From: an uncultured Bacteroidota bacterium | GTDB lineage: Bacteria > Bacteroidota > Ignavibacteria > Palsa-1295 | Direction of reading: 5' to 3' | NCBI GenBank assembly: GCA_963702215.1 | Contig: OY969726.1 | Location: 987,331-1,051,330, forward strand | Length of the DNA: 64,000 bases | Shown: positions 11,329-11,467 of the stretch, piece by piece | Position numbering within the stretch: position 1 is the stretch's first letter | Layout: each line of letters opens with the position of its first letter | Translations under genes and position numbers: made by a program | The notes under the pieces: model-generated | What the model saw: only the letters and a program-made list of their open reading frames with translations | What the model was told of the DNA's origin: nothing | Database searches by the model: none

Positions 11329-11405
11329 CGTCGTGCTTTGACCGACAGCTTGCCGCGACGCGGGATCATCTCTGGTGATTCCATTAAATAAGAGCTAAAG
11401 CGTGC
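11329..11405 (+). ncRNA. SAM-II-like riboswitch aptamer with an extra hairpin in L3
   Basis: P1 CGTCGTG(11329-35)/CGCGACG(11354-60), then CTTT, TTGC(11350-53) and AGCTAAA(11393-99) in SAM-II order. Inserted stem GGGATCAT/GTGATTCC. Lies upstream of metH. Confidence 0.7.
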
Positions 11406-11434
11406 GTTTTCATAGATTAACCTCCTTTCTAAGG

Positions 11435-11467
11435 CGCCATCGGTTGAAAGACAGATGGCGTTTTTTT
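11435..11467 (+). terminator. Intrinsic terminator/attenuator in the metH leader
   Basis: Stem CGCCATC(11435-41)/GATGGCG(11454-60) followed by T7, ending just upstream of the metH ATG at 11472. Confidence 0.85.

Follow-up and report, generated by a model that had tools for sequence, protein, structure and literature searches.

The window analysed here, a 64 kb stretch of DNA from a Kapaibacterium-like host (FCB group), contains a pair of divergent genes separated by a 189-nt spacer, and this spacer holds a candidate riboswitch. The two genes and the parts of the element between them are:

10806-11282 (-): ogt/MGMT-like gene (PF01035)
11295-11320 (+): putative promoter-like motif GAACUC-N14-CCGUUU, conserved in 21 leaders, with its end 8-9 nt from P1
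11329-11335 (+): P1 5′ strand CGUCGUG, pairs with 11354-11360, within the partial match to RF00521
11336-11339 (+): L1 core CUUU, invariant in 21 leaders, aligns to AUUU of the RF00521 consensus
11340-11346 (+): GACCGAC, 3′ part of L1 and position of the P2a 5′ strand, proposed 5′ strand of the antiterminator, complementary to 11440-11445 (6 bp)
11347 (+): A, single nucleotide before the P2b 5′ strand
11348-11353 (+): P2b 5′ strand GCUUGC, ligand-pocket strand, invariant, equal to GCUUGC of the RF00521 consensus
11354-11360 (+): P1 3′ strand CGCGACG, pairs with 11329-11335
11362-11382 (+): optional inserted hairpin at the P1/L3 junction, 9 bp with a UCU loop (-10.7 kcal/mol, z -3.3)
11383-11393 (+): A-rich L3 AUUAAAUAAGA, conserved; insert-less relatives align to UUAAAcAAg of RF00521
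11394-11401 (+): P2b 3′ strand GCUAAAGC, invariant, equal to GCUAAAg of the RF00521 consensus
11404-11410 (+): GCGUUUU, 5′ strand of an antiterminator proposed earlier, which would close the linker; can pair with 11431-11437
Between GCUAAAGC and the terminator hairpin (+): linker, 29 nt
11431-11464 (+): terminator hairpin (-17.5 kcal/mol, z -5.7)
11461-11467 (+): U7 tract of the terminator, seen in the sequence
11472-13298 (+): metH-type gene, 608 aa, the regulated gene (PF02574, 1.4e-84; PF00809, 1.3e-46)

The metH-type gene starts with an ATG at 11472 and encodes a protein with homocysteine S-methyltransferase and pterin-binding domains, in which no B12-binding or activation domain was found by Pfam. 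The closest relatives of this protein are encoded by Candidatus Kapaibacterium and Ignavibacteriota MAGs (86-91% identity). The element lies in the 5′ leader of this methionine-metabolism gene and occupies the same position at 20 orthologous loci in Kapaibacterium-type genomes or metagenome contigs. Together with the window these loci form a family of 21 leaders, the alignment of which holds only 20 distinct, mutually related sequences, and MetH identity across the leader-bearing members is only 82-91%. The sole Rfam match at gathering level in the whole 64 kb is a DUF805b RNA (RF02914) at 35336-35371 (-), with 45.7 bits against a cut-off of 35.6, located about 30 nt upstream of an ORF (34680-35306, -) for a 208-aa cysteine-rich product with a hydrophobic N-terminus.

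An earlier note, made from the letters of this DNA, had recognized the elements of a SAM-II aptamer, and these were found in the order and at the positions it gave: a 7-bp P1, UUU, GCUUGC, an A-rich L3 and GCUAAAG. The P1 helix (CGUCGUG with CGCGACG) contains one G.U pair, and the nucleotides of the ligand pocket follow each other correctly, with the UUU of L1 at 11337-39, GCUUGC at 11348-53 and GCUAAAG at 11394-11400. In the SAM-II crystal structure the adenine of SAM is stacked between two nucleotides of CUUGC, the U and the G, and base-pairs to the U of GCUAAA, while the L1 uridines form triples (PMC3303485); by analogy with that structure, from which the roles are taken, the three U of the L1 CUUU are the equivalents of the triple-helix uridines U10-U12, and U11396 is the equivalent of the SAM-pairing U44. 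The 64 kb window contains a single copy of the pattern TTTGAC-N2-4-CAGCTTGC-N16-46-GCTAAAG, against a chance expectation, by our own arithmetic, of about 3e-6 matches. The local P2a of the window amounts to about 2 bp (AC with GU, directly 3′ of GCUAAAG), and no covarying P2/P2a extension was found directly 3′ of GCUAAAG in the window. A local P2a is present in the relatives L212, L215, L219 and L026 (GCGAC or GCAAC with GUUGC; CGAC with GUCG).

Two further pairings touch the aptamer strands. A perfect 8-bp hairpin, CAAAGCAC-GUC-GUGCUUUG at 11322-11340 (+), overlaps the P1 5′ strand and L1 and, as a competitor of P1, dominates the MFE folds; it is not conserved in relatives and was set aside, and it probably lies partly upstream of the transcription start. 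On the same strand, CGUGCUUU (11332-11339, P1 5′ strand and L1) is complementary to AAAGCGUG (11397-11404, P2b 3′ strand and 3 nt more), forming an outer helix that is present in the MFE folds of L003 and L156. Both of its strands are invariant, which places it beyond the reach of covariation, and it could act as a trap of the unliganded RNA.

Across the 21 leaders, the UUU of L1, GCUUGC and GCUAAAGCG are invariant. P1 is paired in 97.9% of the alignment cells and shows compensatory changes at two positions, from C-G to G-C in five sequences and from C-G to U-A in two. The P2b pairing of GCUUGC with GCUAAAG gains no support from covariation, since its strands never vary. Judged by this comparison of sequences, the element is real and under selection.

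No match at the riboswitch site was returned when the whole window was searched with Rfam at gathering thresholds. A permissive search of 11200-11520 gave a partial match to RF00521 (SAM_alpha) with 19.3 bits, against a gathering cut-off of 36 bits, covering model positions 10-42 of 79; it corresponds to P1 and its loop (11329-11360) and ends where the insert begins. The same search gave no match at E<=10 to SAM-V, SAM/SAH, SAM-Chlorobi or RF01726, and RF01726 had no match at E<=1 in 25 related loci. RF00521 matched L058, L005 and L006, orthologous leaders that have no insert, and the leader L026 of Ignavibacteriales over positions 1-79 with 30.7-34.2 bits (E 5e-4 to 4.5e-3 when 56 kb were searched with all families), and none of the 16 insert-bearing leaders other than that of the window reached E<=1 for any Rfam SAM family. 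The covariance models do miss this copy, as the earlier note had suspected. The natural insert-less orthologs and a sequence-only profile built from 73 insert-less leaders served as proxies for deleting the insert. With the profile the window scored 16.7 bits intact and 22.7 bits after removal of 11361-11383, a result of which only the difference is informative, the training set having been collected with a pattern derived from the window. Despite its failure in the Rfam score test, we have little doubt that the aptamer belongs to the SAM-II class of H-type pseudoknots, where it is filed because its invariant nucleotides are those that make up the ligand pocket of crystallised SAM-II (PMC3303485), and its ligand would be SAM.

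The extra hairpin that the earlier note had described in L3 with 8 bp has in fact 9 bp, the eight already seen plus C11370-G11374 (11362-11370 with 11374-11382), and none of 200 shuffles folded as well. The insert is absent from 10 of the 21 orthologous leaders; in the other 11 it is 20-41 nt long, unrelated in sequence and mostly hairpin-forming. A pattern scan of metagenomes yielded about 110 further SAM-II-like leaders, mostly GC-rich and proteobacterial-looking, about 20 of which carry a hairpin insert at the same site as the window, and the alignment of RF01726 has a variable region at this site as well. Variants with a structured insertion there were published in 2010 as 'SAM-II long loops / long insert' by Weinberg et al. 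(PMC2864571; RF01726); the 'SAM-II long-loop' family is in that paper and was not found in Weinberg 2017. With its hairpin at 11362-11382 the window has, as is typical of RF01726, a structured insertion that separates the P1 3′ strand from the A-rich L3. From the sequences compared, the P1/L3 junction is a known tolerated insertion site and the insert of the window an optional, non-conserved part. The earlier note's inference of a variant switch is not supported: an extra hairpin and a terminator are present, but both were known already, the one from the long-insert family (PMC2864571, RF01726) and the other from SAM-II elements in general (PMC1273637, PMC2258182). Leader L218 has a second inserted hairpin inside the P1 loop (CUGCUC...GGAUCGAUCC...GAGCUG), where the published SAM-II long-insert alignment has its other variable site, and its complementarity between loop and terminator is reduced to GACC with GGUC.

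Upstream of the aptamer, GAAC(T/A)C-N15-16-(C/G)GTT(T/A) ends 8-10 nt before P1 in all 21 family leaders and has a single match in the 64 kb window. No sigma-70-type promoter was found by a promoter scan, and we take the motif at 11295-11320 to be a putative promoter of the ECF-sigma type rather than of the sigma-70 or the Bacteroidetes -33/-7 type. MetH homologs labelled Kryptoniota or Bacteroidetes (L013-L023, L041, L074, L076) are without the riboswitch and share TTTGAATTTCCCC-N7-AGCTAAATTG about 35-60 nt upstream of the metH start, a sequence that resembles the Bacteroidetes-type -33 TTTG / -7 TAnnTTTG promoter.

Downstream of the aptamer, folding confirmed the strong terminator that had been reported just before the metH ATG. 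Its stem is formed by 11431-11441 with 11454-11464 and by 11443-45 with 11450-52 around a GAAA loop, none of 200 shuffles gave as good a fold, and the terminator ends 5 nt before the start codon; as a stable GC-rich hairpin with a U tract directly after it, it is a predicted intrinsic terminator. The 5′ arm (11431-11445) contains both AAGGCGC (11431-37) and the proposed antiterminator target UCGGUU (11440-45). A rule-based terminator scan missed the hairpin at 11431-11464, presumably due to its bulged stem. A terminator hairpin with a U tract is present near the start codon in all 21 leaders, and control of metH by termination is very likely. The statement that SAM-II is best known for translational control reflects only the best-studied, crystallised example, for among alpha- and beta-proteobacteria the most frequent SAM-II platform is a terminator (PMC1273637, PMC2258182), and Scheuer et al. 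(2022) have studied termination at the SAM-II elements of S. meliloti (PMC9373788).

In the family leaders a complementarity is conserved that joins the 7 nt following CUUU to an NNNGGUN in the upper part of the terminator 5′ arm. It takes the form of GACCGAC/GUCGGUC, GACCAAC/GUUGGUC and GAUCGAC/GUUGGUC, and in other relatives of GACCUAUCG with CGAUAGGUC and of GACCUUCUG with CGGAAGGUC, each with 0 of 300 shuffles as good. In the family alignment, which consists of concatenated modules and in which the target was set by the GGU anchor of the terminator arm (an anchor that itself pairs with ACC) and not by best fit, this helix is 95.7% paired and three of its seven pairs change on both sides, one position being AU in 7 leaders, GC in 5, GU in 4 and UA in 3. 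The covariation score was reached by 0 of 500 shuffles, and when the partner columns were slid by 1-3 positions the pairing of the annotated structure as a whole fell to 14-50%. In the MFE fold of the terminator, 20 of the 21 leaders have 6-7 of the 7 target nucleotides in pairs and L218 has 4, and as the target lies inside the terminator stem, the loop helix and the terminator are mutually exclusive and the loop helix is an antiterminator by definition. The window has the weakest such pairing of the family, from G11340.U11445 through A11345-U11440 (6 bp, -7.8 kcal/mol, equalled by 55/300 shuffles). Only the top of the terminator stem is covered by it, and since it falls short of the terminator in stability by about 9 kcal/mol, the switch would need to work kinetically. 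Among 19 family leaders, the mean pairing energy of the terminator 5′ arm is -10.1 kcal/mol with the L1/P2a 5′ strand and -5.4 kcal/mol with the P2 3′ strand, whereas in 81 canonical proteobacterial-type leaders with terminators the means are -1.9 kcal/mol for the L1/P2a 5′ strand and -9.4 kcal/mol for the P2 3′ strand and the nucleotides that follow it. From these alignments and pairing energies, the loop-to-terminator helix is probably the main antiterminator.

The earlier note had given this part to a different helix, GCGUUUU (11404-10) with AAGGCGC (11431-37), which abuts the 3′ end of the aptamer and was thought to be prevented by SAM binding. Such a pairing of 7 bp, two of them G.U, does exist and takes in the base of the terminator 5′ arm; in the window the duplex that it makes with this arm (-6.6) is close in energy to the loop helix (-7.1), but the pairing is at chance level, with a z of -0.8, 41 of 200 shuffles as good and 94 of 300 shuffled 5′ strands pairing equally. 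Its conservation is patchy: the closest relative, L004, retains 5 bp with one change from G.U to A-U, an analogous GUGNN...NNCAC helix joins the nucleotides after AAAGC to the start of the terminator in L002, L003, L156, L203, L204 and L213, and in L005, L207, L211, L201 and L218 the helix is absent or different. Its 5′ strand begins 2-3 nt downstream of the P2b strand that the ligand stabilises, without overlap; hence nothing evident couples the linker helix to SAM, and it could form equally in both states. As the antiterminator of this switch it is therefore unlikely. Tested more generally as a helix that closes the linker, it varied in its presence from one family leader to another and did not surpass shuffled sequence in the window. 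The helix of 11404-10 with 11431-37 may still contribute in the window, where it and the loop helix together take up 13 of the 15 nucleotides of the terminator 5′ arm. The linker between GCUAAAGCG and the terminator also carries the motif AACUACUUGCA in L001, L003, L005, L006, L007, L058, L156, L201, L202, L204, L207 and L211; it resembles the aptamer's own ACAGCUUGC strand, no conserved partner for it was found in the family, and neither the window nor L004 has it.

With the loop-to-terminator helix as the main antiterminator, the best explanation of the locus as a whole, and in our judgement a probable one, is a SAM-II-class switch in which two pseudoknots compete on the P1 hairpin and transcription is turned OFF. 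Without SAM, GACCGA (11340-45) would pair with UCGGUU (11440-45) in the terminator 5′ arm, possibly assisted by the weak linker helix 11404-10/11431-37, the terminator would remain incomplete and metH would be transcribed. With SAM, GCUUGC (11348-53) would pair with GCUAAAGC (11394-11401) and the UUU of L1 would dock in the helix, the loop segment would be withdrawn, the hairpin 11431-64 would form and transcription would stop at the U tract 11461-67. The two pseudoknots would exclude each other sterically, by an argument that is geometric and not a computation: the 4-nt L1, while docked, would not be able to span an antiterminator helix stacked on P2b. In a cofold restricted to nested pairs and ignoring P1, P2b and the antiterminator coexist.

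The OFF direction is likely, and several points speak for it. In L212, L215 and L219 the remote helix occurs together with a canonical local P2a (GCGAC or GCAAC with GUUGC, immediately following AAAGC), and there it uses an extension of L1 that abuts P2a or overlaps it by 0-2 nt and would therefore be free only in the unliganded aptamer. U11339 is bonded directly to G11340, which by geometry would lie at the far end of a 6-7 bp helix beyond P2b. An antiterminator on the other strand of the ligand-stabilised helix mirrors the canonical design with the same logic, and repression by SAM is the expected biology of a methionine-synthesis gene. Corbino et al. (2005) found terminators in many SAM-II representatives, and SAM-II elements followed by terminators have been read as OFF switches (PMC1273637, PMC9373788).

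In the opposite, ON direction, 11440-45 would be the missing 3′ strand of P2a, and the ligand, either SAM or the SAH to which the metH/ahcY riboswitches respond, would sequester the terminator 5′ arm and activate metH. GACCGAC does stand at the P2a 5′-strand position of the RF00521 consensus, and the local P2a partner has been lost in the window; in L212, L215 and L219, however, an intact local P2a is found beside the remote helix, which hence is not P2a there and would form at least equally well without ligand. When only nested pairs are allowed and P1 is ignored, a three-way junction can accommodate P2b together with the remote and the linker helix, but by geometry a CUUU L1 would be too short to dock in P2b and at the same time extend to the distal end of a helix of 6-7 bp. 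Known ON riboswitches do have a strand of the aptamer built into the 5′ arm of the terminator, and metH is activated by SAH riboswitches in proteobacteria; against the ON direction, the nucleotides of the SAM pocket are unchanged. Canonical SAM-II discriminates more than 1000-fold against SAH (PMC1273637). The local P2a kept by relatives and the short L1 are the grounds on which the ON direction was downgraded, and we consider it improbable. If it did hold, at those same poor odds, this would be the first ON-acting riboswitch of the SAM-II class, with the loop-terminator helix as a ligand-stabilised remote extension of P2, and metH would be activated at high SAM, or by SAH if the specificity had drifted, to recycle homocysteine. 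That the locus carries only a degenerate relic that does not switch, with a decayed SAM-II-like sequence followed by a constitutive attenuator-terminator, is scarcely credible, for although RF00521 and RF01726 both stay under threshold, P2a is degenerate and the terminator is far more stable than any alternative fold, the ligand-pocket nucleotides are all invariant across 21 leaders at that MetH identity of only 82-91%, and P1 and the antiterminator helix show compensatory change, which together argue for purifying selection on the RNA.

Taken as an OFF switch of the SAM-II class, the element can be set beside several known systems. SAM-V (RF01826) and SAM/SAH (RF01727), both H-type pseudoknots, have a related ligand pocket; they are for the most part translational elements, marine or from Rhodobacterales, and neither matched the window region at E<=10. 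With SAM-II itself (RF00521 SAM_alpha; the metA motif of Corbino 2005; 2QWY) it shares a P1 hairpin with a large loop, a U-rich L1 (UUUGAC), the pseudoknot strands GCUUGC and GCUAAAG, an A-rich L3, a position upstream of a methionine gene and a following intrinsic terminator, as in many alpha- and beta-proteobacterial examples, and its insert-less orthologs align to the whole model. It differs in L1 (GCUUU in the window, GAUUU in RF00521), in scores below the cut-off (19.3 bits, partial, for the window and 30.7-34.2 bits for relatives), in a local P2a of about 2 bp, in the 23-nt insert and in a host that is a Kapaibacterium and not a proteobacterium; moreover, the antiterminator comes from the P2 3′ strand in canonical SAM-II and from the L1/P2a 5′ strand in the family of the window. 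The SAM-II long-insert family (RF01726; PMC2864571) likewise has a variable, structured insert where the P1 3′ strand passes into the A-rich L3, comes from a Bacteroidetes-related lineage and has its second variable site inside the P1 loop, as in L218, but gives no match to the window even at E<=10. Its Bacteroides examples precede a gene whose start looks to us like metK and have no terminator in the published alignment, whereas the window has a metH gene and a terminator abutting the start codon. For the SAM-II elements of metZ and metA in Sinorhizobium meliloti, premature termination of transcription and the short RNAs derived from the riboswitches have been studied in vivo; high SAM lowers the read-through mRNA, and for metA the prediction of a riboswitch-driven antiterminator did not succeed (PMC9373788). 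Unlike the window, these elements are proteobacterial and without the L3 insert.

Sub-threshold matches to RF02424 ('Bp2_287', a Burkholderia sRNA candidate) were obtained at L196:1079-1222(-), L113:5422-5559(-) and L141:5817-5976(+), in all three on the strand opposite to the riboswitch. The RF02424 consensus reads like the reverse complement of a SAM-II aptamer with L3 insert hairpin and terminator, and by this likeness the 'sRNA' looks like a mis-stranded SAM-II long-insert riboswitch.

At the level of the aptamer the element is of a known kind, the SAM-II long-insert type with a terminator. Beyond the known picture are a Kapaibacterium-type clade that falls below both Rfam models (RF00521 and RF01726) and an apparent use of the L1/P2a 5′ strand, supported by covariation, to hold the terminator open. 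The metH leaders of Kapaibacteria and many insert-bearing proteobacterial copies escape the current Rfam models, and annotation pipelines therefore under-count SAM-II. A terminator held by the loop-side strand rather than by the 3′ strand would mean that two pseudoknots compete for one hairpin loop, and if this is true, it would offer a compact design rule for riboswitches of the pseudoknot type that act on transcription, and the family would be a natural test case for how an H-type pseudoknot aptamer communicates with a terminator.
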